DNA of 64,000 nucleotides from an uncultured Acidobacteriota bacterium (GTDB taxonomy: Bacteria; Acidobacteriota; Thermoanaerobaculia; Multivoradales; SZUA-115). The stretch's first letter is position 1; the number at the start of each line of letters is the position of its first letter. The stretch covers positions 64,001 to 128,000 of the forward strand of contig CAWDVR010000002.1 of the NCBI GenBank assembly GCA_963805975.1, in the 5' to 3' direction. A program made the position numbers and the translations under genes. Below, one piece after another: positions 1-18,798 of the stretch. The notes under the pieces are model-generated. The model searched no databases. It saw nothing but the letters and a program-made list of their open reading frames with translations, and was not told the DNA's origin.

Positions 1-514
1 GAAGCGGCCGTCGGCGGTGGTGAGGAAGATCCGGTCGTCGAGCCCCAGCCCCTTCAGGCCGCGAAAGATCGTGTCGCGGTGACCCGCCAGCGCCACGTTG
101 CCGGCCTCGCCGGGAAACGCAGTCTCCGGCAGGTGGCCGACGGCGCGCCGCAGGGTGGTGGTGTCCACGCCCTCGGCGACGATCGTTTCGATGTCTGCCT
201 TGGGGATCTCCAGGCGTCCGATCAGGCCCTCCGCGGCGGCGCTGGCGCGAGCACCGCTTGCTACTCTCTCGCTGGCTGCACGCTTCTTGGTTTCCAGGCC
301 CGCCTCCCAGCCCGGTGGCTTCTAGCATTGATGCGAGGCGGCTCTCCTGCAGGCGCTCGAAGGCAAAGCGATCGAGCGATACGTACCCCACGTAGCCGAA
401 AGACACCAAGGCGACCAGGAGCAACGCCGCTTGCAGCGAGTGGGCGAAGCTCCTGGCCGTCTTCGTGTCGAGCGCCCCTCCGTACCGGAGGGCCGGTGGC
501 TGCGAGGGGCGCAT
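1..514 (-). pseudogene. Class D-type sortase, truncated by the window edge and apparently frameshifted between its N-terminal membrane anchor and catalytic domain
   Basis: Manual translation of the minus strand 321->1 gives GRLEIP..VAEGVDTTTLRRAVGHLPETAFPGEAGNVALAGHRDTIFR (sortase GHRDT motif). That frame has a TAG at 322-324. The ATG at 514 and the hydrophobic anchor (LQAALLLVALVSFGYVGYVSL) lie in a different frame. Could be a sequencing error. Confidence 0.75.
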
Positions 515-544
515 GGGGTTATCGATCAAACCTCGAACCACGGG

Positions 545-1054
545 TTACGAACGGCGCGCCGCACGGAGGCCGACGGCACCGCCCAGAGCCAGCAAGCCGA
601 TCAGGCCCACCAGGGCCTCGGGGCTCGCGGTCTGCGGCAGCGTACGAGCATACTGGTCGTTATCGGTATCGTCGACATCGTCGTTCATCGCCGTGGCGCT
701 CGGAGCCGGCGCAGGGTACGACGTCGGCGGAGTCAAAGGCTGCTCGGCCATCGCGGAGGCAGCAGGGGCAATCTTCGCCGCGTGGAACGTGCCGTTGGCG
801 AGCGCATGGTAGTCGACCGTCACCCGGTCGCCGACCTTGAGATCGGTCGCCGGCTTGGTGGTCATCGAGTCGATGGCCAGCGTCATCCGCGGGTCACTGT
901 CGGACTGGAGGACCAGCGACGACGGCGACCACGAGAGCACCTTGCCGGTGGTGGTCAACGTCGGGCCCATGCTCGTCGAATCAGTCTGCGCCCAAGCCGA
1001 GACCGCACAGGCGGCGGCCAGAACGCACATGAGAGCGATGCTGTAGCGCTTCAT
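545..1054 (-). CDS. Secreted protein with C-terminal LPxTA sortase sorting signal
   Basis: Signal peptide MKRYSIALMCVLAAACAVSAWA; C-terminus LPQTA + hydrophobic helix + RAARRS; SD AAGGAGA upstream of ATG 1054; adjacent to the sortase gene. Confidence 0.85.
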   Translation of the reverse strand: MKRYSIALMCVLAAACAVSAWAQTDSTSMGPTLTTTGKVLSWSPSSLVLQSDSDPRMTLAIDSMTTKPATDLKVGDRVTVDYHALANGTFHAAKIAPAASAMAEQPLTPPTSYPAPAPSATAMNDDVDDTDNDQYARTLPQTASPEALVGLIGLLALGGAVGLRAARRS

Positions 1055-1202
1055 GATGTCTCTCCTTGGAGTAGTTGTCGGTGAAGTGGCCGCCTCTTGG
1101 CGCGCGGCCGAAGACCTATATTTCGAAGCTGAGCTTTGCACTCCTCGACCCGGGCGACTGGAGGCTTCGGCAACAGCGCTTCTCATCATGGACCACCGAA
1201 AG

Positions 1203-1218
1203 TGCAACCTCCGTTCCA
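1203..1218 (-). promoter_or_regulatory. sigma54 -24/-12 promoter for the LPxTA/sortase genes
   Basis: Minus strand TGGAACGGAGGTTGCA = GG-N10-GC with TTGC. Confidence 0.65.
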
Positions 1219-1290
1219 CGGAAGTAGCCTGACGAACGGCAACGATTCCGGGAGGTTTGGCGCCTTTCGGTGGCTGGAGGAGAAGCTTTT

Positions 1291-3366
1291 TCAGGGCCGG
1301 CCGGCAACCGGTGCCGAGCCGGCAGCGCGTCGGGCCCGGAGCCGCAGCTCGACGCCGGCACGTGCCGCGAAGCCCGGTGCCGGGAAGTAGAACGGCACGT
1401 TGGCGCCGGTCGCGTCCGGCAGCGCGTAGCCGAGCGGGGCATAGCGCTCGTTGGTGAGGTTGAGCAGGTCGAGACGGAGCCGGGAACGGCCCAGGGTTCG
1501 CGCCAGCCGCAGGTCCCAGACCAGGGCGTCGGAGAGCGGCAGCAGATTGGCGTCGTCCAACCAGCGGTCCGCGTACCAGCTTCCAGAGATCTCGGCCCCG
1601 ACCCCTCCCGGCAGGTCGAGCCCGGCGCCGGCGCGCAGCACGTGGCGCGGGATGTTCTTGAGCTGCCGGCCGCGCGCCGGGCCCGAGCGCTGTCCGGCCT
1701 GGGTCCAGGTGTAGGCGAGCCGCGGCCGCACGGGGCTGCCGGCGAAGAGTGACGCCGCGGCCTCCACTCCCTGGTGGAGGCTCCCCTCGAGGTTGCCGTA
1801 GCGGAAGGTGGCGGGATCGAAGTCGATCTCGTCTTCGACGGCGGTGCGGTAGGCCACCAGCTCGAAGCGGTGCGCGGCCGTGGTACCGCGCAAGCCGGCT
1901 TCGATCGAGCGCGCCCGCTGCGGCTCGATGTCGGGGTTCGAGATCACGAAGCTGCCGCCCGTGAAGTCGGGGAACGGCCGCGGATCGAAGAGCTGGTCGA
2001 CCGTGGCCGCCTTGAAGGCGCGCGACACCTGGACAAAGCCGACGAGCGAGCCGGGCGCGGCCGGATCGCGGCCGAGGTCCACGGTCAGACCGATGCGCGG
2101 CGAGAGGGCGTCGTGCTCCACCGTCTCGCCGCCACGCTGCCGGTCGCGGATCGAGTCCCAGCGCAGGCCGGTCGCCAGCCGCAGGCGGGGCGAAAGCTGC
2201 CAGGCGTGGGCGAGAAACCCGGCGAGGCGCTCGCGCCGGGCGTCGGCCGCCGCCACCTCTTCACCCGTGGCACCGGCGGCGCCGACCTCGCGGTAGGTGG
2301 TGTCCAACCCATCGGCCGCGAGCTCGAGACCGGCCCGCAGATGGCTGTCGCGCCCGGCGAGCGTGAATCGGCGCTCCCCTTCGAGCGAGGCACCGGCCGA
2401 TTCCGTGTCGAGGGAGCGCAGCTTGCGATCCCCCAGGCCGGGGACGAGCAACAGGGTGCGAAGCAGCTTCGTCTCCCGGCGCGAGGCCCAGAGCGCGGCG
2501 CGCCAGGGGTGACGCTCGCCGAGGTCGAAGCGCAGCGCGGCCCGCTGCCGCTCCGTGTCCTCGCGGTCGAAGCGGAAGAGCGGGTCCGAGCCCGAGCGGT
2601 CCCGTACCAGCTCGGTAGCTGTCAGAGGTCCGGGCTCCTCGCGGTCACGGCTGCTCGCCGTGGCGTCGAAGCGCCAGCTCCCCGCCGCGAGCGGTCCGTA
2701 CGCGGCGAGATCGAGGCTCCCCTCGTCGCTCGCCGACTGGCTGCGGAAGCCGTCCGTGTGGAGCGCCGAGCCTGCCAGCCGCAGCCCGCCGCGCCCCAGC
2801 GCCACGCTTCGACCCAGGTCTGCCGAGGCGGTGCCGAAGCTGCCCCCGGCGAGGGCCAGCCGGCCGGCGCCGTCCTCCTCGGGCGCGAGGCGGGTGGTGA
2901 CGTCGACCACACCCCCGAGCGCCGTATCGCCGTAGAAGGCCGAGGCCGAGCCGCGCAGCACCTCTACGCGCTCGACGCCCTCGGCGCGCACGCGCCGCCA
3001 GTCCGCAACCCCGGACTCGGCGTCCGCCGCGGGAATGCCGTCGACGCGGAGCTGCAGGTACTCCGCTTCCCCGGCGCCGAAGAAGCCGCGGGCGACGATC
3101 ATCGGCACGCCGCCGGCGCTCTGCGGGAAGAGGACGACGAGGCCCGGGACGAAGTCCAGCAGCTCGGCGAGGTTCTCGGCCGGGAAGGCCGAGATCGCCT
3201 CGCGATCGAGCACCGAGACCGCGGCGGGCACCAGCGAGAGAGGCTCCGCGCCCCGCTCGGCGACTACGACGATGGTGTCGGGAACGCGCAGCGCCGGCGC
3301 CTCGGCCTGGGCGGCGGGCGGGGCGTGCGCGAACAGCAGGCGGAAAGCCAGCCAGACGCCGATCAT
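1291..3366 (-). CDS. TonB-dependent outer membrane receptor
   Basis: Signal peptide, TonB-box-like DTIVVVA, plug motif ERVEVLRGSASAFYG..GGVV, NLTNERY near the C-terminus. Confidence 0.92.
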   Translation of the reverse strand: MIGVWLAFRLLFAHAPPAAQAEAPALRVPDTIVVVAERGAEPLSLVPAAVSVLDREAISAFPAENLAELLDFVPGLVVLFPQSAGGVPMIVARGFFGAGEAEYLQLRVDGIPAADAESGVADWRRVRAEGVERVEVLRGSASAFYGDTALGGVVDVTTRLAPEEDGAGRLALAGGSFGTASADLGRSVALGRGGLRLAGSALHTDGFRSQSASDEGSLDLAAYGPLAAGSWRFDATASSRDREEPGPLTATELVRDRSGSDPLFRFDREDTERQRAALRFDLGERHPWRAALWASRRETKLLRTLLLVPGLGDRKLRSLDTESAGASLEGERRFTLAGRDSHLRAGLELAADGLDTTYREVGAAGATGEEVAAADARRERLAGFLAHAWQLSPRLRLATGLRWDSIRDRQRGGETVEHDALSPRIGLTVDLGRDPAAPGSLVGFVQVSRAFKAATVDQLFDPRPFPDFTGGSFVISNPDIEPQRARSIEAGLRGTTAAHRFELVAYRTAVEDEIDFDPATFRYGNLEGSLHQGVEAAASLFAGSPVRPRLAYTWTQAGQRSGPARGRQLKNIPRHVLRAGAGLDLPGGVGAEISGSWYADRWLDDANLLPLSDALVWDLRLARTLGRSRLRLDLLNLTNERYAPLGYALPDATGANVPFYFPAPGFAARAGVELRLRARRAAGSAPVAGRP

Positions 3367-3404
3367 CCTCAGGGGATCATAGTCGGGCGATCATGGCCCG
3401 GCGG

Positions 3405-4958
3405 TCATGGCAGCGGCTCGATGCGGAACACCTTTCCCGTCTTGGGCATCACCTCGGCCGCCTTGGCGGTGGGCTCGAAGACGCCGAAGTCGAGCACGTA
3501 GACCAGCCCGTCCGGCCCGACCTTGACGTCGACCGGGCGCTCCAGGCCGTCCTCGAGGTCGAGGCGCGAGGCGGGCTGGCTCGCCCCCGCGCCCCGGTTG
3601 CGCACGAACACCTCGCGCCGGCCGCTCGCGAGGTCCACGGCCTCGACCTGGAAGCCGGCGCGCAGGTCCGGGTTGACCGGGTCCGTGTTGGGCCGGAAGT
3701 CACCCATCTCCGAGATCAGGAGCCGGCCGGCCCAGCGCGCGAAAGGGCCGCCGGGCGGCACCACCGTCATGCCGCCGAGCGCGGCGTGCGGATCGGTGGT
3801 GGCCACCAGCAGGCCACGGTCCGGCGGCGCCAGGCCGCTCGCCCGTTGGTCGATCACCGGCAGCAGCAGATCCTGGCCCGGCGGGAAGAACTTGGCCGGC
3901 GCGCGGTAGCGAGGGTCGGAGACGGGTACCAGGGCCGCCGAGTAGTCCGGCCAGCCGTACCAGGCGCCCTCGCGCAGGCGATAGATGGCGTCCGGATCGT
4001 CGAGCACCGGACGGGTGCCGCGGATGTCCGCGCCGTGCATGCCGATGAGCAGGGGGCCGGCCGGGTCCCAGGCCAGGGCCACGGGGTTGCGGAAGCCCCA
4101 GGCCAATAGGTCCGGCGTAGCGGCCCCCGATCGCAGCCGATACACGGCGCTGGTACACGGCACTTTGCCTGCCACCTGGCGCTCGACCGGCGCGCCATAG
4201 GCGGCGAAGGCACCGGTCACCGCGCGGTCGTCCTTCTCGTCAGTGAGCGCGTTGTCGTCGGGGAAGGAAGCGCCCGTCAGGGTCAGGTCGCGGCAGGGCA
4301 CGTCGTGCACCGCGGGGCGCTTCGCGAGCCATTTGCCGTTCACCGGGTCGTGGCTCGACACCACTCCCGAGTTGGTGGCGCTGCCGAGTCCGAAATAGAG
4401 GTTGCCGGCGGCGTCGAAGAGCAGGTAGTTGACGGCGTGGTCGCCGTTGCCCGGCAGGTCGCGCAGCACCGCCTCGACGGCGCCGCCCGCCGGCCGCACG
4501 CGGCTGATGCCCCAGGTGCCGTCCTTCTCCTCGTGCGAGAAGTAGAGCCAGCCGTCGTGGAACTCGAGGCCGATCGCCTGCCCGCCGGTCGGCGCCCGAT
4601 CGCCTTCGAGCGGGATCTCCTCCGGCTCGCCGGCGTCGTTGACGCGCAGGATCCGCGGCTCGAGCAGCGGCACCGGCACGGTGTGCGACTCGAGGACGTA
4701 GAGCCGGCCAGTGTCGTCGAAGGTGATCGAGCTCGGATAGTTGAGGCCCGCGACCAGCCGCACGGCCCGGAAGCCGGCCGGCGTCTCGATGTCCGTCACC
4801 ACCTTGGGCTCGGCGCCGTGGGTCGCGGCCTGATCGAGCGACTGCGTGGCGAGCGTTCCACCCTTGCATGCGGTGAGCAGCAGCAGCCAGCCCACGGCGA
4901 CGCCGATGGCGAGCCGGGGGCTGCGTTTCAGGTCACGCGCCTTGACACGGAACTTCAT
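3405..4958 (-). CDS. PQQ-dependent glucose/sorbosone dehydrogenase family beta-propeller lipoprotein
   Basis: Lipobox LLTAC; motifs GLNYPSSITFD, AWGFRNP, YGWPD, RPVDVKVGPDG.VYVLDFG; ATG overlaps the upstream stop (ATGA at 4955-4958). Confidence 0.85.
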   Translation of the reverse strand: MKFRVKARDLKRSPRLAIGVAVGWLLLLTACKGGTLATQSLDQAATHGAEPKVVTDIETPAGFRAVRLVAGLNYPSSITFDDTGRLYVLESHTVPVPLLEPRILRVNDAGEPEEIPLEGDRAPTGGQAIGLEFHDGWLYFSHEEKDGTWGISRVRPAGGAVEAVLRDLPGNGDHAVNYLLFDAAGNLYFGLGSATNSGVVSSHDPVNGKWLAKRPAVHDVPCRDLTLTGASFPDDNALTDEKDDRAVTGAFAAYGAPVERQVAGKVPCTSAVYRLRSGAATPDLLAWGFRNPVALAWDPAGPLLIGMHGADIRGTRPVLDDPDAIYRLREGAWYGWPDYSAALVPVSDPRYRAPAKFFPPGQDLLLPVIDQRASGLAPPDRGLLVATTDPHAALGGMTVVPPGGPFARWAGRLLISEMGDFRPNTDPVNPDLRAGFQVEAVDLASGRREVFVRNRGAGASQPASRLDLEDGLERPVDVKVGPDGLVYVLDFGVFEPTAKAAEVMPKTGKVFRIEPLP

Positions 4959-5446
4959 GGCGCGGGCTCCCGGCGACCGATCTCGGTGGCCTCGGGGTCG
5001 GCGTTCTCGAGCACGCCGATCTTGTGCTCGAAGACCATCTTGCCTCCCAGCCATCCCGAGGCGAGGAGCAACGCCGTCGCCACCAGCGCCAGGCCCATGG
5101 CGAGCGTCCACCGCGAGCCGGTGAATGCGCCGCCATTCCAGCGCAGCGCCAGGCTGGCGGCGAAGAGCGCCACCACCGTGAGGTTGAGAACCATGTGCAG
5201 GGTGGCGAGCCGCCGGCCGCGGGCGCTCATCTTCACCCCGAAGTAGTCCGCGAAGCCGGCCAGGGCGGCGAGCAGGGCCGAGACCACCCCCACCAGGATG
5301 GCGACGCGAGAGATCTCGTACCAGCTCGCGTTTTGGGTCTGGTAGTACGCGCAGTCAGCGATCACCGCCAGGATGAAGGCGCCGATCGGCACGGTGACCA
5401 AGAAGGGATGGATCGGATGCCCTCCGATCGCGGCGCGGCTTCTCAT
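4955..5446 (-). CDS. DUF2231 family membrane protein
   Basis: GHPIHPFLVTVPIG N-terminal motif, 4 TM helices, GWLGGKMVFEH; SD GGAGG upstream. Confidence 0.85.
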   Translation of the reverse strand: MRSRAAIGGHPIHPFLVTVPIGAFILAVIADCAYYQTQNASWYEISRVAILVGVVSALLAALAGFADYFGVKMSARGRRLATLHMVLNLTVVALFAASLALRWNGGAFTGSRWTLAMGLALVATALLLASGWLGGKMVFEHKIGVLENADPEATEIGRREPAP

Positions 5447-5494
5447 ATCTCCACCTCCCGAGCCGGAGCGAGCTCCGCTCACCTGCGGGTTTCT

Positions 5495-6082
5495 CTACAT
5501 CGCGGTTCTCAGCACGCTGATCTTTTCGGCTTCGGCCGGCAGGGCCTGCCCGGCCGTCACCGGCAAACGCCAGGCGATCAGGCCGATTGCCATCACCAGC
5601 AAGAGGAGCACGGGAGCGAGCTCCCAGCGGCGGGCCTGGTCGCGGCGCGGTGCGCGTCCCAGGGCGAAGAGCAGGCAGAAGGTGAGGAGCACGAGGAGAC
5701 CGACTTGGAGCACCGGCGCGAGGCGAGACTCGAAGCCCGCCTGGTCGCCGAGGAGAACAGGCACCAAGAGACCGAGAGCGACCGGCAGCACGAAGAGCGT
5801 GCCGGCACCGAGCAGGAACGCGAGGCGGCGCGGAGCCTGGAGAAAGCGCACACCGCCGTAGGCCACCACCGCGGCGGCCCCGGCGCCGAAGCCGCAGGCG
5901 AGAGCCAGGCCTCGCCACATGGGAACCAGCGCCTCCGCCTCGTGGGCCAGGGTCCAGGTGAGCGCGAGCGTACATGCGACCCAGGCTCCCAGCCCGACCT
6001 TGAGCAGGCGCAAGGTCTCCCGATTCCAGAACAGATGCAGTGCAGCCACTCGCAACGGATGGGGCTCTCGCATCGCCTCCAC
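5495..6082 (-). CDS. Hypothetical multi-pass membrane protein
   Basis: About 5 hydrophobic segments; SD-like GGAGGAGG at the start; first gene after a sigma54 motif. Confidence 0.65.
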   Translation of the reverse strand: MEAMREPHPLRVAALHLFWNRETLRLLKVGLGAWVACTLALTWTLAHEAEALVPMWRGLALACGFGAGAAAVVAYGGVRFLQAPRRLAFLLGAGTLFVLPVALGLLVPVLLGDQAGFESRLAPVLQVGLLVLLTFCLLFALGRAPRRDQARRWELAPVLLLLVMAIGLIAWRLPVTAGQALPAEAEKISVLRTAM

Positions 6083-6138
6083 CTCCTCCCAAGCTCAAAT
6101 TTTCAAGTTTCAAACGACTCGGATCGAAAGCTCGAGAG

Positions 6139-6154
6139 AGCAAGGCATGTGCCA
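6139..6154 (-). promoter_or_regulatory. sigma54 -24/-12 promoter for the 6082->1291 operon
   Basis: Minus strand TGGCACATGCCTTGCT, near-consensus. Confidence 0.8.
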
Positions 6155-6243
6155 TGGAGATCGGAGACAGACGCCAGCACCGCCCTCTCCGGGCATGCAC
6201 CCCTTGCCGCCGGGGAAATCTTGGACGGAAAGAACTGCCATGC

Positions 6244-6477
6244 CTACGCCCGATCCTGGAGACGGCTTTCGCCGGAGGACTTCGCGCAGTGGTTGCAGCA
6301 GTAGAGCGTGCCGTCCGCCTCCAGGCCGTGGCCGATGATCCGGCAGCCGCAGTGCGAACAGACCGGCGCCAGCATGTGGATGGCGCACTCGAAGCTGTCG
6401 AAGGTGAGGGTGGTATCGGCCATCGTTACCTGGAAGGCCTTGTCGTAGTCGTTGCCGCAAAGCGCACAGCGTGCCAT
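6244..6477 (-). CDS. Small Cys/His-rich metallothionein-like metal-binding protein (77 aa)
   Basis: MARCALCGNDYDKAF..FDSFECAIH..CSHCGCRIIGHG..YCCNHCA with 9 Cys and 4 His; SD AAGGAGG upstream of ATG 6477. Confidence 0.8.
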   Translation of the reverse strand: MARCALCGNDYDKAFQVTMADTTLTFDSFECAIHMLAPVCSHCGCRIIGHGLEADGTLYCCNHCAKSSGESRLQDRA

Positions 6478-6525
6478 GCATGCCTCCTTTTGCGTTTCGT
6501 CTTGTGTTTCGTTCCCGCCCGGCGG

Positions 6526-6541
6526 TGCAAGAGAGTTGCCC
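6526..6541 (-). promoter_or_regulatory. sigma54 -24/-12 promoter for the Cys-rich protein gene
   Basis: Minus strand GGGCAACTCTCTTGCA (GG-N10-GC, TTGC). Confidence 0.6.
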
Positions 6542-6551
6542 GCTGCCCGCG

Positions 6552-6567
6552 CGGCACGGCAATTGCC
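6552..6567 (+). promoter_or_regulatory. sigma54 -24/-12 promoter for the UbiB/ABC1 kinase gene
   Basis: CGGCACGGCAATTGCC, near-consensus. Confidence 0.7.
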
Positions 6568-6582
6568 TGGCCTCACCCGCTC

Positions 6583-8253
6583 ATGACCCTCTCCCTCGCT
6601 CCGAGCCACCTGAAGCGCTACAAAGACATCGCCCGCCTGTTCATCCGCTATGGCCGCCGCGAGTGGGCGACCGGCGACTGGGCGGCTGCCGGGCTCGCCG
6701 CCGAAGAGCCGGCGATGCCGGAGACCTCGCCGGCCGCCGAGCAGCTCGCCGACGACCTCGAGGCCCTGGGGCCCACCTTCATCAAGCTGGGCCAGGTGCT
6801 GGCCACCCGGGCCGACCTGCTGCCGCTGCCCTATCTGACCGCGCTCGCCCGCTTGCAGGACCAGGTCGAGCCCTTCGCCTTCGCCGAGGTGGAGCGCACG
6901 GTCGAGAGCGAGCTCGGCGTGCGGCTCTCCAAGGCCTTCTCGAGCTTCGAGTCGGCGCCTCTCGCCGCCGCTTCACTGGGCCAGGTGCACCGCGCGGCGC
7001 TGCGCGACGGGCGGCTGGTGGCGGTCAAGGTGCAGCGGCCCGGCGTACGCGAGATCATCGTCGACGACCTGGCCGCGATCGGCGAGGCCGCGGTCTGGCT
7101 GGAGGCTCACACCGAGATCGGCAGCCGCTACCAGTTGACGGCCCTCGCCGACGAGTTCCGCCGCACGCTGCAACGCGAGCTGGACTACGGAATCGAGGCC
7201 AACAACCTCGAGCGCCTGGGGAAGATCCTCGAACCCTTCCCGCGGCTCCTGGTGCCGCAGCCGATCCACGACTTCACCACCTCGCGCGTGCTGACCATGG
7301 ACTACGTGCGCGGCAAGAAGGTCACCGCTCTCGGGCCCCTGGCGCGCCTCGAGCTGGATGGCGAGGGGCTCGCCGACGAGCTGTTCCACGCCTACCTCCA
7401 CCAAGTGCTGGTGGACGGCTTCTTCCACGCCGATCCGCACCCGGGCAACGTCTTCATCACCGACGACCAGCGCCTGGCGCTCCTCGATCTCGGCATGGTC
7501 GGCCACGTGTCCAACGAGCAGCAGGACAAGCTCCTGCGGCTCCTGCTCGCGGCGAGCGACGGCCGGGGCGAAGAGGTTGCCGCGCTGGCCGAGGCGATGG
7601 GCACCAGGCTGCCCCACTTCGACGCGGCGAAGTTCACCCGCAGCGTCTCCGGCCTGGTGGCGGAGCACCGTGAGGCGAGCCTCGAGCAGCTCGCCATCGG
7701 CCGGCTGATGCTGGCGGTGGCGAGGGAGAGCGCAGAGGCGGGCGTTCGCCTGCCGTCGGATATGTCGCTCCTGGGCAAGACGCTGCTGCAGCTCGACGAC
7801 ATCGGGCGCACCATCGCTCCCGGCTTCAATCCCAACGAAGCGGTCCGCCGCCACGCCGTGGCGGTGACGCGCGAGCGCCTCAAGAAGAGCGCCTCGCCGC
7901 CCAATCTCCTCGCCGCCCTGGGCGACATGAAGGAGTTCCTGGAGCGGCTGCCGGCACGCACCAACAAGATCCTGGACCTGGTGGCGGCGAACGAGCTCAA
8001 GATCGAGGTCGACGCCATCGACGAGGGGTTGTTGATGGAGGGCTTTCAGAAGGTCGCCAACCGGATCAGCGTCGGCCTGGTGCTCGCGGCGCTGATCGTC
8101 GGTGCCGCTCTACTGATGCAGGTGGAGACCTCGTTTCGCCTCTTCGGCTATCCGGGCTTGGCGATGATCTGCTTCCTGGGAGCCGCGGCCGGCGGGGTGG
8201 CGCTGGTAGGCGGAATCCTGTGGAACGACCGTCAGACCCGGCACAAGGACTAA
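6583..8253 (+). CDS. ABC1/AarF/UbiB family atypical protein kinase
   Basis: LGPTFIKLGQ, AAASLGQVH, VAVKVQRP, FFHADPHPGN, LLDLGMVG; two C-terminal TM helices. Start moved from the track's 6040 to ATG 6583. Confidence 0.93.
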   Translation: MTLSLAPSHLKRYKDIARLFIRYGRREWATGDWAAAGLAAEEPAMPETSPAAEQLADDLEALGPTFIKLGQVLATRADLLPLPYLTALARLQDQVEPFAFAEVERTVESELGVRLSKAFSSFESAPLAAASLGQVHRAALRDGRLVAVKVQRPGVREIIVDDLAAIGEAAVWLEAHTEIGSRYQLTALADEFRRTLQRELDYGIEANNLERLGKILEPFPRLLVPQPIHDFTTSRVLTMDYVRGKKVTALGPLARLELDGEGLADELFHAYLHQVLVDGFFHADPHPGNVFITDDQRLALLDLGMVGHVSNEQQDKLLRLLLAASDGRGEEVAALAEAMGTRLPHFDAAKFTRSVSGLVAEHREASLEQLAIGRLMLAVARESAEAGVRLPSDMSLLGKTLLQLDDIGRTIAPGFNPNEAVRRHAVAVTRERLKKSASPPNLLAALGDMKEFLERLPARTNKILDLVAANELKIEVDAIDEGLLMEGFQKVANRISVGLVLAALIVGAALLMQVETSFRLFGYPGLAMICFLGAAAGGVALVGGILWNDRQTRHKD

Positions 8254-8290
8254 AAACAAAAACGCCGGGCCTCGAAGCCGAGGCCCGGCG
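8252..8290 (-). terminator. Intrinsic terminator for the OMP gene (possibly bidirectional)
   Basis: 12-bp stem CGCCGGGCCTCG-aagc-CGAGGCCCGGCG followed on the minus strand by TTTTTGTTTTT, between convergent genes. Confidence 0.8.
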
Positions 8291-8312
8291 GGCAGCTCGA
8301 AGTCGATCGGAG

Positions 8313-8903
8313 CTAGAAGTTCCAGCGTAAGCCGACGTTGGCGCCGAACCCGTCGAGATCGAAGGTCGCGGTGTCGTCGATGTCGATGTCGTCGATGTCG
8401 TCGAGATCCTCGGGATCGAGGCGGACCTCACCTTCCATCTTGCGGTAGTTGGCCTCGACGAAGAACTGGATGCCGTCCGGATTGCCGAAGGCGGCGCCCA
8501 GCGCGCCGTAGTAACCCACCTCGTCGTCCACCTCGCCAAAGTCGCTGTCCAGCAGGTAGTAGCCGGCACCGAACGAGGCATAGGGGCGGAAGCTGTCCTG
8601 CGGGAAGCTCAAGCGCACACCCACCTCGGCCGGGATCACGCTGATGCCCTGATCCTGGAAGACGGTGTCGTCGCTGTCGAAGGCGTTGGCGAGCGGGTCG
8701 TCCGACAGCTCCTCGAAGTAGGTGCCACGGAGCTCGATGGCCCAGGTCTCGTTGAACGGCAGGCCGAGGCTGATACCGCCACCCGCCGTGTCCCCTGCGG
8801 CGTCGGTGTCCCAGTAGGAGCCGTAGAGCGAAAAATCGGTGGCGGTCGCCGGCATCGCGAGTGCGAGGCCGAGGACGGCTGCCAGTAGAGCTTTACTCTT
8901 CAT
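8313..8903 (-). CDS. Small outer membrane beta-barrel protein (OmpW/OmpA-TM-like)
   Basis: Signal peptide, amphipathic strands (RPYASFGAGYY), C-terminal GLRWNF; SD AAGGAGA. Confidence 0.85.
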   Translation of the reverse strand: MKSKALLAAVLGLALAMPATATDFSLYGSYWDTDAAGDTAGGGISLGLPFNETWAIELRGTYFEELSDDPLANAFDSDDTVFQDQGISVIPAEVGVRLSFPQDSFRPYASFGAGYYLLDSDFGEVDDEVGYYGALGAAFGNPDGIQFFVEANYRKMEGEVRLDPEDLDDIDDIDIDDTATFDLDGFGANVGLRWNF

Positions 8904-9010
8904 GGTTGTATCTCTCCTTGGTTGTGTGTGGGTGAAGCTCGAAACAGGCAAGCCCCTCTCTCCCTCACGTCACGCGCGGCTCAATGGAACCGCATATCTC
9001 ACGCCACGGC

Positions 9011-9026
9011 TGCAACTAACATTCCA
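9011..9026 (-). promoter_or_regulatory. sigma54 -24/-12 promoter for the OMP gene
   Basis: Minus strand TGGAATGTTAGTTGCA. Confidence 0.65.
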
Positions 9027-9158
9027 CCAACCAAGGCGCCGGGCTCTGCGACCGTGCCGAGCAGGCTCGAGACCAAGCGGCCGGCAAGGCCTGCCGTTCT
9101 TGCAGACGGATTTTCCGCTGCCAGCGGCACGGGGGTCGCAAATTCGTGTTCAGCGCGC

Positions 9159-9174
9159 TGGCACGACGCTTGCC
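9159..9174 (+). promoter_or_regulatory. sigma54 -24/-12 promoter for the lipoprotein gene
   Basis: TGGCACGACGCTTGCC matches the TGGCACG-N4-TTGC consensus; weaker copy CGGCACGGGGGTCGCA at 9125-9140. Confidence 0.85.
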
Positions 9175-9228: not shown

Positions 9229-9756
9229 ATGATTCGAACCCCACAGTTCGTTCTCGCAGCGATGATCATCGCCGCCCTCTCAGTCAGCGCTTGCCAGCCC
9301 GCCCACAACGAGCGGGCCGCGGATACCGCCAAGGGTGCTCCCACCCCCGCGGTGAGCGAGCAGGAGAAGCCCGGCACCGCGAACCCGAGCGATCTCTCCC
9401 CGGCCCAGGCCGAGATCCGCATCGACGACGTGACCCTGGGTTACGCCGTCGCCGCCGACGACACCATCCCCACCGAGCAGAAGGGCGACGATTTCGCCCG
9501 CGAGACGGTGTACGTGTCGATGAAGGTGGAAGACACCCCGGCCGGTTCGGTGGTGAAGACGGCTTGGTTCGCTCCCGGCGACCTGCGCGTCCACGAGGAC
9601 ACCAAGACGGTGGCGAATGGCCAGCAGCACCTGAGCTTCAAGGCCGATACCAAGGACTGGGCGCTCGGCGACTACCGGGTCGAGGTCTGGCTCGGCGACG
9701 AGAAGGTGGCCACCGAGCACTTCAACATCGTGGCCTCGCGCGAGAGCCAGGTCTGA
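9229..9756 (+). CDS. Hypothetical lipoprotein with a C-terminal Ig-like fold
   Basis: Lipobox VSAC after a hydrophobic stretch; WALGDYRVEVWL; SD GGAG. Confidence 0.75.
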   Translation: MIRTPQFVLAAMIIAALSVSACQPAHNERAADTAKGAPTPAVSEQEKPGTANPSDLSPAQAEIRIDDVTLGYAVAADDTIPTEQKGDDFARETVYVSMKVEDTPAGSVVKTAWFAPGDLRVHEDTKTVANGQQHLSFKADTKDWALGDYRVEVWLGDEKVATEHFNIVASRESQV

Positions 9757-9790: not shown

Positions 9791-9827
9791 GCGGGGGCGC
9801 ACCACAGGGCGCGTTCCCGCTTTTTTT
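9791..9827 (+). terminator. Intrinsic terminator
   Basis: GCGGGGGCGC...GCGTTCCCGC stem (with G-U pairs) followed by T7. Confidence 0.65.
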
Positions 9828-9846
9828 GTGCGTTAGCATCGCCGCC

Positions 9847-11061
9847 GTGAGCGAGGATCGGCCTCCCGGCCTGGCGTGGTTCCACACCTCCCCGCACCGC
9901 CGGCGACTGGTCGGGATGCTGGTCGGCATCGCCTCGCCGGTTCTGCTCATCGAGCTGCGCATAGTCTTCGAGGCCGATCCGGGCGCCTCGCCGTTCCTGC
10001 TCTTCGGTCTCGTCGTGGTCACCGCTTCCTGGATCGGAGGCCTCGATGCCGGGCTCGCTGCCATGCTGAGCTTTCTCGCCACCAGCTACTCGCTGCTCGC
10101 CCCACCCTGGGACTGGAAGACGCTGGTCGTGGCGCTCGTCGAAGGCACGCTGATGTCCTGGCTCGGCTCGACGCGCCTCAAGGCGATCCTGAGCTGGACC
10201 AACCTGCGCCAGGAGCTCGAGCAGCGCATCGACCGGCGGACCTCGCAGCTCGCGCGCACCAACGTCCGTCTGCAGGAAGAGGTGGAGGCGCACGAGCTGA
10301 CGATCGGCAACCTGGTCAGCGCGACCGGCCAGCTCACCAGCAGCAACAAGGAGCTCGAGCTGTTCGCCTCCGCCGCCTCGCACGACTTGCAAGAACCGTT
10401 GCGCAAGATTCGCACCTTCGCCGATCGGCTGCTCAACCGCCACGCCGAGGGGGTGAGCGACGCGGCGCGCGACGACCTGGCGCGGATCGCGCGCGCGGCC
10501 GAGCGCATGTCGACCCTGATCGAGGGGTTGCTCGCCTACTCGCGTCTCGCCAGGCAGAGCGGCATCGCCCGGCAGGTGGATCTCGACGAGGTGGTTCGCG
10601 GCGTGCTCAGCGACCTCGCCCTGCTGATCGAGTCCGGCGGCGCCAGGGTCGAGGTGGGGCCGCTGCCGACTATCGAGGCCGACGAGGTGCAGATGCGCCA
10701 GCTCTTCCAGAACCTGATCTCGAATGCGCTCAAGTTCGTGGCTCCCGAGGCACCGGCCGAGATCCGTGTCCACGGTGAGGTCGATCCCTCTGCCGTGCCG
10801 CCCTTCTGCCGCCTCTTCGTCGCCGACCGCGGCATCGGCTTCGAGCCTCGCTACCGCGAGAAAGTGTTCGACATGTTCCAGCGCCTCCACGAACGCGGGC
10901 GTTACGAGGGGAGCGGCATCGGCCTGGCGATCTGCCGCAAGATCGTCGAGCGGCACGGCGGCACGATCGAGGTGTCGAGCGAGGTCGGGCGGGGCTCGAC
11001 CTTCGTCGTGACCCTGCCCCTCGAGCAACCGGCGCCCGCAGCCACTGAGATCGAGATCTGA
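9847..11061 (+). CDS. Membrane sensor histidine kinase (ASHDLQEPLR subfamily)
   Basis: N-terminal TM helices, coiled coil, H-box ASHDLQEPLRKI, N-box QNLISNALKF, DRGIG, GSGIGLAIC; exact start uncertain. Confidence 0.92.
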   Translation: MSEDRPPGLAWFHTSPHRRRLVGMLVGIASPVLLIELRIVFEADPGASPFLLFGLVVVTASWIGGLDAGLAAMLSFLATSYSLLAPPWDWKTLVVALVEGTLMSWLGSTRLKAILSWTNLRQELEQRIDRRTSQLARTNVRLQEEVEAHELTIGNLVSATGQLTSSNKELELFASAASHDLQEPLRKIRTFADRLLNRHAEGVSDAARDDLARIARAAERMSTLIEGLLAYSRLARQSGIARQVDLDEVVRGVLSDLALLIESGGARVEVGPLPTIEADEVQMRQLFQNLISNALKFVAPEAPAEIRVHGEVDPSAVPPFCRLFVADRGIGFEPRYREKVFDMFQRLHERGRYEGSGIGLAICRKIVERHGGTIEVSSEVGRGSTFVVTLPLEQPAPAATEIEI

Positions 11062-11070
11062 AAGAGAGGG

Positions 11071-11514
11071 ATGGAAATGGCAAGTATTGACAAGGACGGC
11101 GAAGCCGGCCCCGGGCTCCTGGAGCGCGCGGCCCAGGCCGTCACCTGCTGGTCGGGGACCGATCAGGCCTTCGCCCTGGCCGTGGGGACAGTCGCCGCCT
11201 GGCTGGTGACGGGACCGATCTTCGACTACTCGAACACCTGGCAACTGGTCATCAACACCGGCACCACGATCATCACGTTTCTGATGGTCTTCCTCATCCA
11301 GCGCTCCCAAAACAAAGAGGCGCGAGCCCTGCAGGTCAAGCTCAACGAGCTGATCTCGGCCATCGGTCCGGCAAGCAACCGCCTGATCGGCGCCGAGGAG
11401 CTGTCGGAGCGCGAGCTCGAGGCGCTGGCGCATCACTACAAGCTGCTGACCCAGCGCCTCGAGCCCGGTTCTCGGGAGGCGCCAGAGATTCCTGATTCAT
11501 CAATCCTTAAATAG
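11071..11514 (+). CDS. Low-affinity iron permease (Fet4-like) family small membrane protein
   Basis: YSNTWQLVINTGTTIITFLMVFLIQRSQN..LQVKLNELI signature. Confidence 0.85.
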   Translation: MEMASIDKDGEAGPGLLERAAQAVTCWSGTDQAFALAVGTVAAWLVTGPIFDYSNTWQLVINTGTTIITFLMVFLIQRSQNKEARALQVKLNELISAIGPASNRLIGAEELSERELEALAHHYKLLTQRLEPGSREAPEIPDSSILK

Positions 11515-11603
11515 ATGGCGGTCGAAACCGGCTATGGAACGGTGCGGCCATGGTATGGTGGACTTCGCATCGCCAACCAGTCCCCAGCCGAGGATTCGGA
11601 ACC

Positions 11604-12068
11604 ATGAACGGACCCGTCAGAAGCGCAGGAATCGTCCTCGTCGACGACGACCCCGAGGACCGAATGCTGATCCGCGAAGCCCTCGTCGAGGCCATGGTGA
11701 CCAACCCACTGGCCGAAGTCGAAGACGGCGACGAGCTGCTGCGATACCTCACCCGCCCCGGCCCCGCCGCCGGCGGTCCCGACTCCGGCGGTCTGATCCT
11801 GCTCGATCTCAACCTGCCGGGCAAGGACGGCCTGCAGGTGCTGCGCGAGCTGAAACAGCATCCGCGGCTGCGCCGGATCCCGGTGGTGGTGCTCACCACC
11901 TCCACGGCGACCGAGGACGTCGAGGAGAGCTACGCCCTGGGTGCGAGCTCCTTCATCTCCAAGCCCACGGCGTTCGGCGAGCTGGTGCGGCTGATGAGGA
12001 CCCTGGGCGACTACTGGTTCGCCGCCGTGCGCCTTCCCGCCGAGGTCGCTTCGCATGGAGCCGCGTAG
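11604..12068 (+). CDS. Single-domain response regulator (Rcp1-like)
   Basis: LVDDD, LLDLNLPGKDG, IPVVVLTTS, FISKP, YWF C-terminus. Confidence 0.92.
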   Translation: MNGPVRSAGIVLVDDDPEDRMLIREALVEAMVTNPLAEVEDGDELLRYLTRPGPAAGGPDSGGLILLDLNLPGKDGLQVLRELKQHPRLRRIPVVVLTTSTATEDVEESYALGASSFISKPTAFGELVRLMRTLGDYWFAAVRLPAEVASHGAA

Positions 12069-13644
12069 GCTGCGAGTTCTCCTGGTCGAGGACGACGAAG
12101 ACGACTCCCTCCTGACCGGCGAGCTGCTGGCCGAGATCCCCGACGTCGAGCTCTCCTGTGACTGGGCGCCGAGCTACGCCGACGGGCTCGAGAGGCTGGC
12201 GGCTGGCAGGTTCGACGCTTGCCTGGTCGACCACTTCCTGGGCGCTCGCACCGGCGTGGACTTCGTGCGCGAGGCCTCGACGCTCGCCAGTCCGCCGCCG
12301 ATGATCCTCCTGACCGGCGCCGCGTCGCGCGAGATCGACCTCGCGGCGATGGCGGCGGGCGCCTCGGACTTCCTGCAAAAGGAGGGGCTGACGGCGGCGC
12401 TCCTCGACCGTTCGATCCGCTACTCGATCCAGAAGCAGCAGGCCGCGAGCGCCGCCCTCGAGCTGGTGCTCGAGCGCGCGGCGCGGAGCGCGGCCGAGGA
12501 CGCCAACCGCGCCAAGGACCAGTTCCTGGCCCGCCTGAGCCACGAGCTGCGGACCCCGCTCGCTCCCATCCTCGCGGTGGCGACGCTGCTCGAGGACGAG
12601 CCGGAGCTCTCCGCCGCGGGCCGCGAACAGCTCGTGGTGCTGCGCCGCAACGCCGAGCAGGAAGCTCGGCTGATCGACGACCTGCTCGACATCACCCGTA
12701 TCGTCCACGGCACCTTCGAGCTCAAGAAAGAGCAGGTCGAGGTGGCCACGCTGCTCTCGGAGATGGTCGAGAACGCAGCCGGCGGCACGCCGGACCGGAG
12801 GCCCGAGGTCCGCCTGGCGCTCGCCGCGGACGACCATCGCGTGTGGGGCGACGCGGCCCGCCTGGAGCAGGCCTTCGCCAACCTGCTTTCGAACGCGGTG
12901 CGCTGCACGCCGCCGGACGGGGTGATCACAGTGCGCACCGGCAAGGAGGCGGCTTGGCTCGCGGTCGAGATCGCGGACACCGGCTGCGGATTCGAGCCCG
13001 GCGACGCGCCCCGGCTGTTCGAGGCCTTCGAGCGCGGGGCGGGCGCCGGCACCGGCGGCCTCGGCCTGGGGCTCTCCATCGTGCGCTCGATCGTCGCCGC
13101 GCACGGCGGCCACGTCGCGGCGCTGAGCGAGGGCCGCGACCGGGGCGCGACGTTCACCGTGCGGCTGCCCCGGGTGCTGATGCCGGAGGCTCCGCCGGCT
13201 GGGGCTTTCGAGGCCAGCGAACGGCAGGCGGCCGGGACCGCGGCACCGGGTGAGCCCGCGCTCCACCTGCTGCTGGTCGAGGACCACGAGGACACTGCCT
13301 TTGCCACCGCGGCGCTCCTGCGGCGCCTCGGCCACCGCGTGACCAGGGCGGCCGGGGTGAGCGATGCGCGGGCGGCGGTCGTCACCGGCGAACGGATCGA
13401 CCTGGTGGTGAGCGATCTCTGGCTGGGTGAGGAGAGCGGGCTCGACCTGATGCAGGAGCTGGTTCGGGAGCATGGCCTGCGGGGTATCGCGCTCTCCGGC
13501 CTGGGCGGGAGCGAAGCCGTCGAGCGCTGCCGCGAGGCCGGCTTTTCCCGCCATCTCACCAAGCCGGTCTCCTACGAAGAGCTGGCGAGCGCCATCCGAG
13601 AGGTCGCCGCCGGCTCCCCGGGTCTGATATCTTTTTCCACTTGA
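12055..13644 (+). CDS. Cytoplasmic hybrid histidine kinase REC-HisKA-HATPase-REC
   Basis: N-terminal receiver, LSHELRTPL, NLLSNAV, GLGLGLSIV, C-terminal receiver (LVEDH, VSDL, LTKP). Confidence 0.92.
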   Translation: MEPRRLRVLLVEDDEDDSLLTGELLAEIPDVELSCDWAPSYADGLERLAAGRFDACLVDHFLGARTGVDFVREASTLASPPPMILLTGAASREIDLAAMAAGASDFLQKEGLTAALLDRSIRYSIQKQQAASAALELVLERAARSAAEDANRAKDQFLARLSHELRTPLAPILAVATLLEDEPELSAAGREQLVVLRRNAEQEARLIDDLLDITRIVHGTFELKKEQVEVATLLSEMVENAAGGTPDRRPEVRLALAADDHRVWGDAARLEQAFANLLSNAVRCTPPDGVITVRTGKEAAWLAVEIADTGCGFEPGDAPRLFEAFERGAGAGTGGLGLGLSIVRSIVAAHGGHVAALSEGRDRGATFTVRLPRVLMPEAPPAGAFEASERQAAGTAAPGEPALHLLLVEDHEDTAFATAALLRRLGHRVTRAAGVSDARAAVVTGERIDLVVSDLWLGEESGLDLMQELVREHGLRGIALSGLGGSEAVERCREAGFSRHLTKPVSYEELASAIREVAAGSPGLISFST

Positions 13645-14342
13645 CCGGCCAACCCCTGGAAGAGCATGGTCTGTCGCATGGGAGCCATCTCCTGTGCAGC
13701 GAGCAGTTTCGCGCGCTCGCCCGCTTCCGCTCGTCGATCGAGCACGAGCTGCGCAGCCCCTTGAACTCGCTCGGCCTCAATCTCGAGCTGCTCTCGAACG
13801 AGGTGGCGGACCTGGGTGGCGGGGCGGCAGGAGCCTTGGCCGAGACCCTCGCCTCGCTCCGCCAGGCCGTGGGCCGCATGACCGGCAATGTCGAATCTTT
13901 GCTGCGCACCGTTCTGCCTTCCGGCCACCGCCGCACCGAGGTCGTGGACCTCGACCGCGCGCTGGCCGAGCTGGCCGCGCTCTGCCGCCTCGAGGCGCGG
14001 CTCGCCCGGGTGTCCACCACGGTCGAGCTGCCGGGCCGTCCGTGGGCTGTCGAGGTCGAGGGCGAGGCCCTGCGGCAGGCGCTGCTGATGGTGGCGGCCG
14101 AGGCGCTCGAGCACGCGGTGACCGGTGGCGCGATCGCCATCTCGCTCGGCGGCGAGGCCGGGGCTCCGGTGATCCGCTTCGAGGTCCGGCCCTGGCGACA
14201 GGCGGCGGCCGGCGACGGCAGCCCCGCTCTCGGGCTGGCGGCAAAAGCTCTGGGCGCCATCCTCGAACGGCAGGCGGGCGAGGGATCACTCGTCATCGAA
14301 ATGAGGCTCGAAGTGGCCTCGGAGGGCGGCGAGCCATGTTGA
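13641..14342 (+). CDS. HisKA (DHp) protein with a degenerate ATPase domain; possible phosphotransferase
   Basis: H-box EHELRSPLN is intact; the N-box position reads LRQALLMVAAEALE (no Asn) and G1/G2 boxes are not recognisable; overlaps both neighbours. Confidence 0.7.
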   Translation: MTGQPLEEHGLSHGSHLLCSEQFRALARFRSSIEHELRSPLNSLGLNLELLSNEVADLGGGAAGALAETLASLRQAVGRMTGNVESLLRTVLPSGHRRTEVVDLDRALAELAALCRLEARLARVSTTVELPGRPWAVEVEGEALRQALLMVAAEALEHAVTGGAIAISLGGEAGAPVIRFEVRPWRQAAAGDGSPALGLAAKALGAILERQAGEGSLVIEMRLEVASEGGEPC

Positions 14343-15742
14343 GCGCACTGATCGTAGACGACGACGAATCCTCGGCCCGCGCCCTGGCCCGGGTGGTCAA
14401 GGACGAGGGCTACGTCCCTTTCACCGTGGCGAGCCTCGCCGCGGCGCGCCAGCGCATCGAGGAGCAGCCGCCGACCCTGGCCCTGGTCGACCTCATGCTG
14501 CCCGACGGGCACGGCCTCGAGCTGCAGGAGACCTTGAGCGAGGTGGCGCCCGACTGCGCGGTGGTGGTGATCACCGGCCACGCCTCGATCGACACCGCCG
14601 TCGACGCACTGCGCCGCGGCGTCGCCGACTACCTGACCAAGCCGATCGACATGGCGCGGCTCAAGACGGTGTTCGTCCACCTGAAGCGCAAGCGGGAGAT
14701 GGACGTCGAGATCGGGGCGCTGCGCGACGAGCTCAAGGGGCTGGGCCGCTTCGCCGGCATCGTCGGCTCCTCGTCGGCGATGCAGCGCCTGTTCGACCAC
14801 ATCCAGCGCGTGGCCCCGACCCGCGCCACGGTCCTGGTGCTGGGCGAGAGCGGTACCGGCAAGGAGCTGGTGGCGCAGGCCGTCCACCGCCTGAGCAAGC
14901 GCCGCTCGCAGCCGCTGGTGACCGTCAACTGCGGCGCCATCTCGCCGCAACTGATCGAGAGCGAGCTCTTCGGCCACGAGCGAGGCAGCTTCACCGGCGC
15001 CGAGCGCCAGCACCAGGGCTACTTCGAGCGCGCCTCGCGCGGCACTCTGTTCCTGGACGAGGTCTCGGAGATGCCGCCCGAGCTGCAGGTGAAGCTGCTG
15101 CGGGTGCTGGAGACCGGGCAGGTGCTGCGCGTGGGGGGCCGCGAGCCGATCGCCGTCGACCTGCGGGTGGTGGCGGCCTCCAACCGCGACCTGGAGCAGG
15201 CGGTGAGCGAGGGCAAGTTCCGCCAGGATCTGCTCTACCGGCTCAAGGTCTTCCCCATCTATCTGCCTCCCCTCTCCGAGCGCGGGAGCGACGTCGAGCA
15301 GTTGGCGGAGCACTTCCTGGCCGAGCTCAACCGCGCCGAAGGCCGGCGCCAGCGGCTCTCCGCCGAGGCCGTGGCGGCGCTCTCCCGCCACCACTGGCCG
15401 GGCAACGTGCGCGAGCTCAAGAACACGATCCACCGCGCCTCGATCCTGGCCGGCGACGAGATCACGGTCGCGGACCTGCCGTCCGACATCCTGGGCGACG
15501 CCGCCCTGCCAGAGCCGGGCGCGCTGCGCGTGGCGCCTGGCACCCCGCTCGCCGACGTGCAGCGCCGGCTGGTGCTCGCCACCATGAACGAGTTCGACCA
15601 GGACCGGTCGCGCACCGCCGACGCGCTCGGCATCAGCGTGCGCACGCTCTACAACTGGCTGAAGGAGTACCAGGCCCAGGGTGCCTGGAGCGGCGACGAC
15701 AAGGCCGAGGAGCCGGCCGTGCCCGTCGGCCAGGAGAGCTAG
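14336..15742 (+). CDS. sigma54-dependent response regulator (NtrC family, REC-AAA+-HTH)
   Basis: GESGTGKE, ESELFGHERGSFTGA, LFLDE, FRQDLLYRL, WPGNVREL, Fis-type HTH; ATG at 14336. Confidence 0.95.
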   Translation: MLSALIVDDDESSARALARVVKDEGYVPFTVASLAAARQRIEEQPPTLALVDLMLPDGHGLELQETLSEVAPDCAVVVITGHASIDTAVDALRRGVADYLTKPIDMARLKTVFVHLKRKREMDVEIGALRDELKGLGRFAGIVGSSSAMQRLFDHIQRVAPTRATVLVLGESGTGKELVAQAVHRLSKRRSQPLVTVNCGAISPQLIESELFGHERGSFTGAERQHQGYFERASRGTLFLDEVSEMPPELQVKLLRVLETGQVLRVGGREPIAVDLRVVAASNRDLEQAVSEGKFRQDLLYRLKVFPIYLPPLSERGSDVEQLAEHFLAELNRAEGRRQRLSAEAVAALSRHHWPGNVRELKNTIHRASILAGDEITVADLPSDILGDAALPEPGALRVAPGTPLADVQRRLVLATMNEFDQDRSRTADALGISVRTLYNWLKEYQAQGAWSGDDKAEEPAVPVGQES

Positions 15743-18707: not shown

Positions 18708-18798
18708 TGGGACCTCCGGGAAGGTTGGCAAGAAAGAGAATCGCCGGCATGCTATCAAAGCGCTGGTTCTCAGCTCCTGAGCGGGCTAGGATCGGCCC

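Follow-up and report, generated by a model that had tools for sequence, protein, structure and literature searches.

We describe here six sigma-54 promoter motifs that lie within 8 kb (positions 1203 to 9174, here called the block) of a 64,000-nucleotide stretch of DNA from an uncultured Acidobacteriota bacterium, together with the gene of an NtrC-type activator that begins at position 14336 of the same stretch. From sequence comparison it seems fairly probable that the six motifs are working sigma-54 promoters of a stress-survival regulon that is spread over the genome and switched by the 14336 activator. The preliminary description of this DNA had proposed a self-contained, sigma-54-based general stress response; the motifs, a likely neighboring driver and the stress role are supported by our analysis, and the self-containment is not.

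The window, meaning the whole stretch of 64,000 nucleotides, corresponds to G000:C2:64001-128000, where G000 is the source genome (5.36 Mb, 70% G+C, six contigs, 96% complete). Its 4248 genes were called with a custom codon-based procedure that gives approximate start codons. G001 is a comparison genome of the same genus, and a wider set is made up of 60 genomes of the same order. Sigma-54 sites were scored with a matrix built from 58 upstream training sites, all of them outside the block, starting from a seed pattern composed after the six block sites had been seen. A 32-copy palindromic repeat in the intergenic DNA of G000 resembles the sigma-54 motif and misleads matrix scans; the first matrices drifted or picked up this repeat, and the final matrix was retrained with the repeat removed beforehand. 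The spacer control is the same matrix with its spacer altered by one base. The ku and ligD genes of G000 were named by eye, as were, on clustered families, most of the markers at the activator loci of other genomes.

Six sigma-54 motifs in the block

The motifs are given below with their window coordinates, strand, the positions of the GG and GC elements and the matrix score.

1202..1220, minus strand: sigma-54 motif 1, GG/GC at 1217/1204, 16.8 bits, kept in G001 and G002
6138..6156, minus strand: sigma-54 motif 2, GG/GC at 6153/6140, 18.5 bits, first gene after it 5495..6073
6525..6543, minus strand: sigma-54 motif 3, GG/GC at 6540/6527, 9.7 bits, the weakest of the six
6550..6568, plus strand: sigma-54 motif 4, GG/GC at 6553/6566, 12.2 bits, also present before the homologue in G028
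9010..9028, minus strand: sigma-54 motif 5, GG/GC at 9025/9012, 14.7 bits
9157..9175, plus strand: sigma-54 motif 6, GG/GC at 9160/9173, 17.7 bits

The preliminary description had placed six GG-N10-GC motifs with TTGC in this block, and all six lie where, and on the strand on which, it had placed them. Each has exactly 10 bases between GG and GC within a match to a TGGCACG-N4-TTGC-like sigma-54 consensus, as given in an excerpt of PMC4676750, and two of the six matches are weak. With an earlier matrix, for which the strict consensus served as seed, motifs 1 to 6 scored 15.0, 20.5, 13.6, 7.6, 9.9 and 17.4 bits, so that the scores of the sites at 6527, 6552 and 9012 depend on the matrix chosen.

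That description had also made its proposal depend on a matrix scan against shuffled DNA, on a motif density above background, on conservation in related genomes and on the presence of rpoN, and all four came out in its favor. Six of the seven oriented intergenic regions of the block reach 9.5 bits, and the best of 2000 shuffles reaches this score in three. Shuffled sequence contains the loose consensus 63 +/- 8 times and the window contains it 109 times, and the block is the densest sigma-54 cluster of G000, with five sites of at least 12 bits in 8.5 kb (the next best cluster has four). All six motifs are retained in G001 (13.9, 17.8, 6.8, 11.5, 16.6 and 19.8 bits for motifs 1 to 6), where the two spacers that were measured are only 52% and 57% identical to those of G000. 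The genome has a single rpoN gene. Because of the shuffle and spacer controls, the conservation in G001 and the presence of rpoN, the six motifs are very likely real sigma-54 promoters. The alternative that GC-rich DNA produced them by chance, or that they are relics out of use, could draw on the ubiquity of the bare GG-N10-GC pattern (5570 sense against 5944 antisense occurrences), on the two weak sites and on the repeat family that mimics the motif; given that the controls oppose it, and that an intact rpoN accompanies motifs kept between such diverged spacers, we regard it as highly improbable.

The 14336 activator and its candidate enhancer

An NtrC-type activator and kinases had been reported to follow the block at 9.8-15.7 kb, and they are found there. 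The activator is the following gene.

14336..15742, plus strand: NtrC-type enhancer-binding protein with a receiver domain (Asp52), a GSFTGA loop and a helix-turn-helix (HTH) domain

The protein has the features of the NtrC type, namely an invariant D52, an AAA+ domain with GSFTGA and a C-terminal HTH_8 domain. Among its 25 best matches to the NCBIfam equivalogs all fall below the cut-off, the best being NtrC (393 against 559 bits), and judged by these matches the protein does not class as an orthologue of a named regulator such as NtrC, AtoC, ZraR or LuxO. Relatives of at least 50% identity occur in 27 of 61 genomes and form a single clade in a quick tree of 29 rows, in which rows of G011 and G012 are absent (Shimodaira-Hasegawa-like approximate likelihood ratio test, SH-aLRT, 100). 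The members have a common recognition helix, with the HTH signature LG[IV]SLKTLYNRL.

The clade is linked to stress genes and to sigma-54 sites. A stress marker lies within 10 kb at 17 of 30 clade loci in the relatives and at none of 10 loci of the next-closest paralogue, and a site of at least 10 bits lies within the same distance at 24 of 30 against two of 10. The clade gene is directly beside csbD in G034 and G018 and elsewhere beside yciF, BON, pfpI or otsA. One or more of four markers are present in 26 of the 27 clade-bearing genomes and in five of the 34 others; among these five, the clade member of G058 lies at a contig end, G043 has a receiver-less relative, and G027 and G052 have csbD genes with no motif, which leaves the closed genome G025 as a true exception. 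A strong sigma-54 site of their own stands on the kinase-activator operon at six other clade loci, which suggests positive feedback there; the corresponding operon of G000 has no sigma-54 motif (best 0.2 bits).

The linkage extends beyond the order. In a set of 80 activator loci drawn across all phyla, which is a sample and not a census and whose low-GC controls may hide markers, six of nine clade loci have a marker nearby, against two of the 71 loci of other activators. These clade loci belong to Binatia, Acidobacteriota, Betaproteobacteria and Planctomycetota, and the gene order of the Acidobacteriota locus L223 is common to G023, G032 and G059 of the same order. At least 1751 protein clusters match at an E value of 1e-140, and the cultured carriers of the clade include Herbaspirillum, Paraburkholderia and Cupriavidus. 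At two betaproteobacterial-type loci (L162 and L226) the rpoN gene beside the clade activator has a sigma-54 site of its own (15.2 and 15.8 bits).

Comparison of G000 with G001 revealed conserved blocks upstream of motifs 1, 2, 5 and 6. A 15-bp palindrome, with the consensus NNG[A/C/T]A[A/G]-N3-[C/T]T[T/G/A]CNN, was learned on 74 promoters of other genera, G000 and G001 being left out; 25 of its 39 best matches lie 40-100 bp upstream of the -24 element. The spacing between boxes had not been part of the training, and still 23 of 34 second boxes are in helical phase (17 of these at 20-22 bp); in controls 13 of 59 are. Phased candidate pairs are present at four of the six block promoters (motifs 1, 2, 5 and 6).

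1302-1316 and 1280-1294, minus strand: candidate enhancer pair of motif 1, 22 bp apart, same spacing in G001
6226-6240 (12.3 bits) and 6195-6209 (3.0 bits), minus strand: candidate enhancer pair of motif 2, 31 bp apart, 32 bp in G001
9082-9096 and 9103-9117, no strand assigned: candidate enhancer pair common to motif 5 and motif 6, which diverge, with a spacing of 21 bp here and in G001

On the held-out matrix the box at 1302-1316 reaches only 1.3 bits. The last codons of the TonB receptor frame overlap the first enhancer box of motif 1. Pairs above the 95th background percentile are found in G000 at nine of 20 hand-picked stress-type promoters and at five of 65 other sigma-54 promoters. At the loci from other phyla eight of 19 promoters pass the pair threshold, two of them by way of the activator's own coding sequence. 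The box pair is thus a likely enhancer, and a good lead rather than a result. Because of the linkage of its clade to the markers, their co-occurrence and the common upstream boxes, the 14336 protein is likely the activator of these promoters.

Stress genes across the genome

Outside the block, 2.9% of 2722 upstream regions of G000 have a site of at least 12 bits, against 0.44% with spacer-shifted matrices. In all, 82 sites outside the block reach this score against 12 with the shifted matrices, so that about 70 sites genome-wide can be taken as real. Activator domains are likewise numerous (23 strong among 31 matches), and the hallmark stress genes lie outside the block, so that the regulon can no longer be called self-contained. 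The 76 non-block genes with a site of at least 12 bits include 75 that were scanned for families, of which 26 have no family at an E value of 1e-8.

The hallmark targets csbD, catalase, ku-ligD, yciF and BON are found in G000 under this one promoter type, and yciF and BON, as well as pfpI, otsA and topoisomerase IB, are stress markers. High scores are reached before csbD (19.4 bits), the DUF6496-BON unit (20.1), DUF5670 (19.5) and a 747-amino-acid katE-type catalase (17.9), and a lower one before a ferritin-like gene (13.2); the sites of ku-ligD (11.8) and of the two yciF genes (9.9 and 10.4) fall just below the 12-bit threshold. In a second stress island (C1:257318-263654, L005) sites of 19-21 bits stand upstream of four genes, namely DUF6496, csbD, DUF5670 and one that encodes a secreted protein. 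The sites of this island surround a hybrid histidine kinase gene, whose product could feed the 14336 activator. The gene of an extracytoplasmic function (ECF) sigma factor at G000:C2:884034 (L027) combines an 18.3-bit site with a strong box pair, and the regulon may have a second tier via this factor.

In the 60 genomes of the same order a locus was counted when a site of at least 10 bits lay within 300 nucleotides of the gene, after one csbD locus (L091, a tandem repeat) and the yciF loci L191-L192 (weak matches) had been dropped. Sites were found at 14 of 29 csbD loci (spacer control 0/58), 18 of 28 yciF loci (1/56), nine of 21 DUF5670 loci (0/42) and five of eight metallothionein-like loci (0/16). 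The csbD sites are concentrated in one subtype, in which 11 of 14 loci have one, whereas most loci of the other subtype have none. In four further yciF genes a strong site lies about 700 nucleotides upstream. It is quite likely that the six block promoters belong with this genome-wide set of survival genes.

The stress sigma factors of other phyla were looked for in the same genome. RpoS and SigB were not found in G000, where sigma-70 region 3 is confined to RpoD, and RpoH- or FliA-type factors are missing in the same way. A profile search of the 96% complete genome did not find NepR, and PhyR gave no match above the cut-off; control searches matched in both cases. The dedicated stress sigma factor and partners that define RpoS, SigB and EcfG systems were thus not found in G000 by these searches. 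Across the order, 74 of 79 region-3 matches lie in frames of at least 550 amino acids, which is the size of RpoD, and some relatives have a second RpoD-sized region-3 gene. No EcfG-type promoter pattern matched upstream of any of the 29 csbD loci or of 57 loci of other markers, and at the 29 csbD loci a pattern of SigB type had no match either.

Other sigma-54 targets bear on the nature of the regulon. The 75 scanned genes include six for MacB/FtsX permeases, two for pilins and three for receptors, all of which probably answer to other activators. The MacB/FtsX-type permease genes stand at six loci (L004, L021, L032, L034, L042 and L050) with sites of 16-19 bits, mostly near the start, and we read these sites as a separate sigma-54 regulon. 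It could be argued that the block belongs to a single sigma-54 regulon for envelope remodeling or for a life-cycle stage such as resting cells or surface growth, with one specific cue and no broad protection against stress. The cargo of the block is mainly secreted, membrane or outer-membrane, many of the other sigma-54 targets are pilins, permeases and receptors as listed above, and a comparative study links sigma-54 to the cell exterior in the portion consulted (PMC3162934). The catalase, ku-ligD, yciF, ferritin-like, pfpI, otsA and topoisomerase IB genes speak against this, being genes of cytoplasmic protection, and envelope genes abound in the EcfG stress regulon as well (PMC7083833, in excerpt); we therefore consider an envelope or life-cycle regulon improbable.

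Several observations weigh against a stress-survival regulon switched by the 14336 activator, and some of them concern the promoters themselves. Motifs 3 and 4 (sites 6527 and 6552) adjoin each other in opposite orientation, only 12 bases separating the two GG elements, and a start from the 6552 motif would lie about five bases before the ATG. Neither motif has an above-background box pair within 200 bp, and the first genes after the six motifs include no hallmark stress gene. The box motif is degenerate (likelihood 88, a modest excess over the 49-72 of motifs from three random control sets), and two of its training matches fall inside the activator's own coding sequence. Thirteen of the 30 clade loci have no marker nearby, and the genomes behind the counts across relatives are not independent of one another, for which reason these counts are given with no P value. 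Thirty-eight other sigma-70 matches exist in G000, of which those inspected look like ECF factors, and one of them may be an ECF factor with a stress role. The remaining points on this side would suit a division of labor, in which the 14336 protein drives just the block and a few box-bearing genes and csbD, katE, ku-ligD and yciF use one or more of the other 22 activators, with no single regulon. Most hallmark promoters of G000 have no box pair nearby (none above background within 200 bp of csbD, DUF6496, DUF5670, katE, ku and one yciF gene), one of the 22 activators is encoded 4 kb from the targets at C3:772 kb, and G025 has sigma-54 sites on csbD and DUF5670 with no clade member found. Such a division is nonetheless unlikely in our view, as the clade gene adjoins csbD, yciF, BON, pfpI and otsA in other genomes and its presence tracks the markers, single boxes are often present at the csbD and yciF promoters of relatives, and enhancers can act from a greater distance.

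Signal input, known systems and the genes of the block

The activator gene is the last of a group of signaling genes, separated from the unit of the 9159 motif by a hairpin.

9806..9830, plus strand: terminator-like hairpin between the sigma-54 units and the signaling operon
9847..11061, plus strand: membrane sensor histidine kinase, catalytic boxes intact, start codon uncertain
11071..11514, plus strand: low-affinity iron permease family protein
11607..12068, plus strand: single-domain response regulator
12055..13644, plus strand: hybrid kinase (receiver-kinase-receiver), boxes intact
13641..14342, plus strand: kinase remnant with no sensor domain, which keeps the H-box and has lost boxes N, G1, F and G2, overlapping the activator gene

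Activation by enhancer-binding proteins is textbook, and by analogy with this standard mechanism the sigma-54 holoenzyme would wait in closed form at the -24/-12 elements of every promoter. After phosphorylation on Asp52 the activator would bind two 15-bp palindromic boxes 21-22 or 31-32 bp apart and, from 50-100 bp upstream, would open the promoter with ATP. The phosphate might be relayed from the upstream sensor and hybrid kinases via the histidine of the remnant, a weaker part of the scheme that we propose because no ATP pocket is left in the kinase whose gene overlaps that of the activator. The inducing signal may be starvation or drying, which is a guess based on the gene set.

To judge its boxes, the remnant was aligned with 20 members of its family and with two intact sequences as controls. 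The same losses are seen in G001, G041 and G050 (in G050 the H-box stretch lies outside the gene call), and intact sensor kinases occupy the position of the remnant in sister genomes including G056, G053 and G044. G041 also has the sensor kinase, the single receiver and the hybrid kinase close to its activator. The hybrid kinase is found in G013, truncated in G050 and not found in G001, a further count against the scheme, so the relay would not be obligatory. The remnant had no match to ChpT or Spo0B among solved structures, the best being ZraS and KinB, and a poor structure model (single sequence, predicted local distance difference test, pLDDT, 60.6) gave no match at an E value of 0.001 in a fold search. 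A phosphate relay through the histidine of the remnant is the role that we tentatively prefer, the alternative role being that of a phosphatase or scaffold.

The present system can be compared with several known ones. Like the EcfG/PhyR/NepR system of Alphaproteobacteria, in which csbD, catalases, ku-ligD and egtB/egtD are direct general-stress targets in Sphingopyxis next to many envelope genes (PMC7083833, in excerpt), it has csbD, catalase, ku-ligD, egtB/egtD and numerous envelope genes among its predicted targets; unlike EcfG/PhyR/NepR, RpoS and SigB systems, none of which was found here, the targets carry -24/-12 motifs, and control would be by an ATP-using activator rather than by release of a sigma factor. 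The 14336 protein resembles NtrC, AtoC, ZraR and PrsR in its receiver-AAA+-HTH architecture, in the paired upstream palindromes (candidates here) and in an adjoining kinase gene; it differs in belonging to a clade of its own, in its predicted broad survival targets in place of one pathway and in a partner kinase with no ATP boxes. Its best plasmid matches are the activator beside rpoN2 on the Ralstonia megaplasmid (RSp1667/RSp1668), which is 51% identical, has GSFTGA and the same HTH signature and also has sigma-54 motifs on small neighboring genes; that activator has a second RpoN alongside, whereas G000 has one rpoN, and Table 3 of PMC4676750, as far as excerpted, assigns no function to it. 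ChpT/Spo0B-type phosphotransferases have a histidine-bearing helical domain and a degenerate catalytic domain. The remnant is like them in keeping the H-box and having lost the ATP-binding boxes, and unlike them in being recently derived from a kinase still intact in sister genomes, with phosphotransfer only predicted. We read the system as one that works in the NtrC manner with general-stress cargo and that is no member of the RpoS, SigB or EcfG systems.

More tentatively still, this could be a fourth design of general stress response, in which an old clade and a phased 15-bp box pair run csbD, yciF, katE and ku-ligD via sigma-54. Such a design might span Acidobacteriota, Binatia and Betaproteobacteria, the kinase having turned into a relay protein in this lineage. 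Our literature search found no description of a sigma-54-run general stress regulon, subscription papers and supplements (e.g. rpoN2 transcriptomes) being outside its range. The question addressed is how abundant soil lineages with no RpoS, SigB or EcfG respond to general stress; the analysis names an activator clade and a promoter type and supplies a candidate enhancer and a list of targets, all of which can be tested in cultured carriers of the clade. If true, it would suggest a role for the functionally unassigned activator beside rpoN2 in Betaproteobacteria.

The genes of the block itself are as follows.

545..1054, minus strand: secreted protein with a weak DUF5666 match and, by eye, a C-terminal signal of the sortase type
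1291..3366, minus strand: TonB-dependent receptor, not at the corresponding locus of G001
3405..4958, minus strand: beta-propeller lipoprotein, marginal glucose/sorbosone dehydrogenase match, not at the G001 locus
4955..5446, minus strand: DUF2231 membrane protein, not at the G001 locus
5495..6073, minus strand: membrane protein with no known family, first gene behind motif 2
6244..6477, minus strand: 77-amino-acid Cys/His-rich protein, metallothionein-like, below the Pfam cut-off
6583..8253, plus strand: ABC1/UbiB-family atypical kinase, ABC1 kinase domain clear
8313..8903, minus strand: outer-membrane beta-barrel protein
9229..9756, plus strand: lipoprotein with no known family, following motif 6

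The preliminary description had likened this cargo to general-stress genes. The ABC1 kinase domain is indeed clear; the prokaryotic metallothionein family (PF02069, 20.4 against a gathering score of 33 bits) and the UbiB equivalog (335 against 488) stay below their cut-offs, and the dehydrogenase match is marginal. Taken alone, the cargo is weak evidence for a stress role, most of it being envelope proteins or proteins with no known family. Motif 1 is followed by the secreted protein, a sortase gene and then egtB/egtD-like genes past the window edge. The sortase gene (window 1-541, minus strand) is split into two frames (about 511-296, and 216 onward) and is a single 230-amino-acid frame in G001; the split reflects a frameshift or an assembly error. 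At this locus G001 has neither the stretch 1291-5446 (DUF2231, propeller and TonB receptor genes) nor 9847-13644 (kinase, iron permease, receiver and hybrid kinase genes), and a small gene resembling GlsB/YeaQ, which carries a 19.8-bit site, is found there.

Further along the window, 16824-21596 holds genes for an IPTL-CTERM protein, a DinB-like protein, an AbrB-PIN toxin-antitoxin-like pair, an Ogt-like DNA-binding protein and an AlkZ-like glycosylase, with no sigma-54 link. From about 26000 to 56000 the gene calls are sparse and low-scoring, with an ECF sigma fragment at 40666-40899, and this part of the window may be a foreign island.

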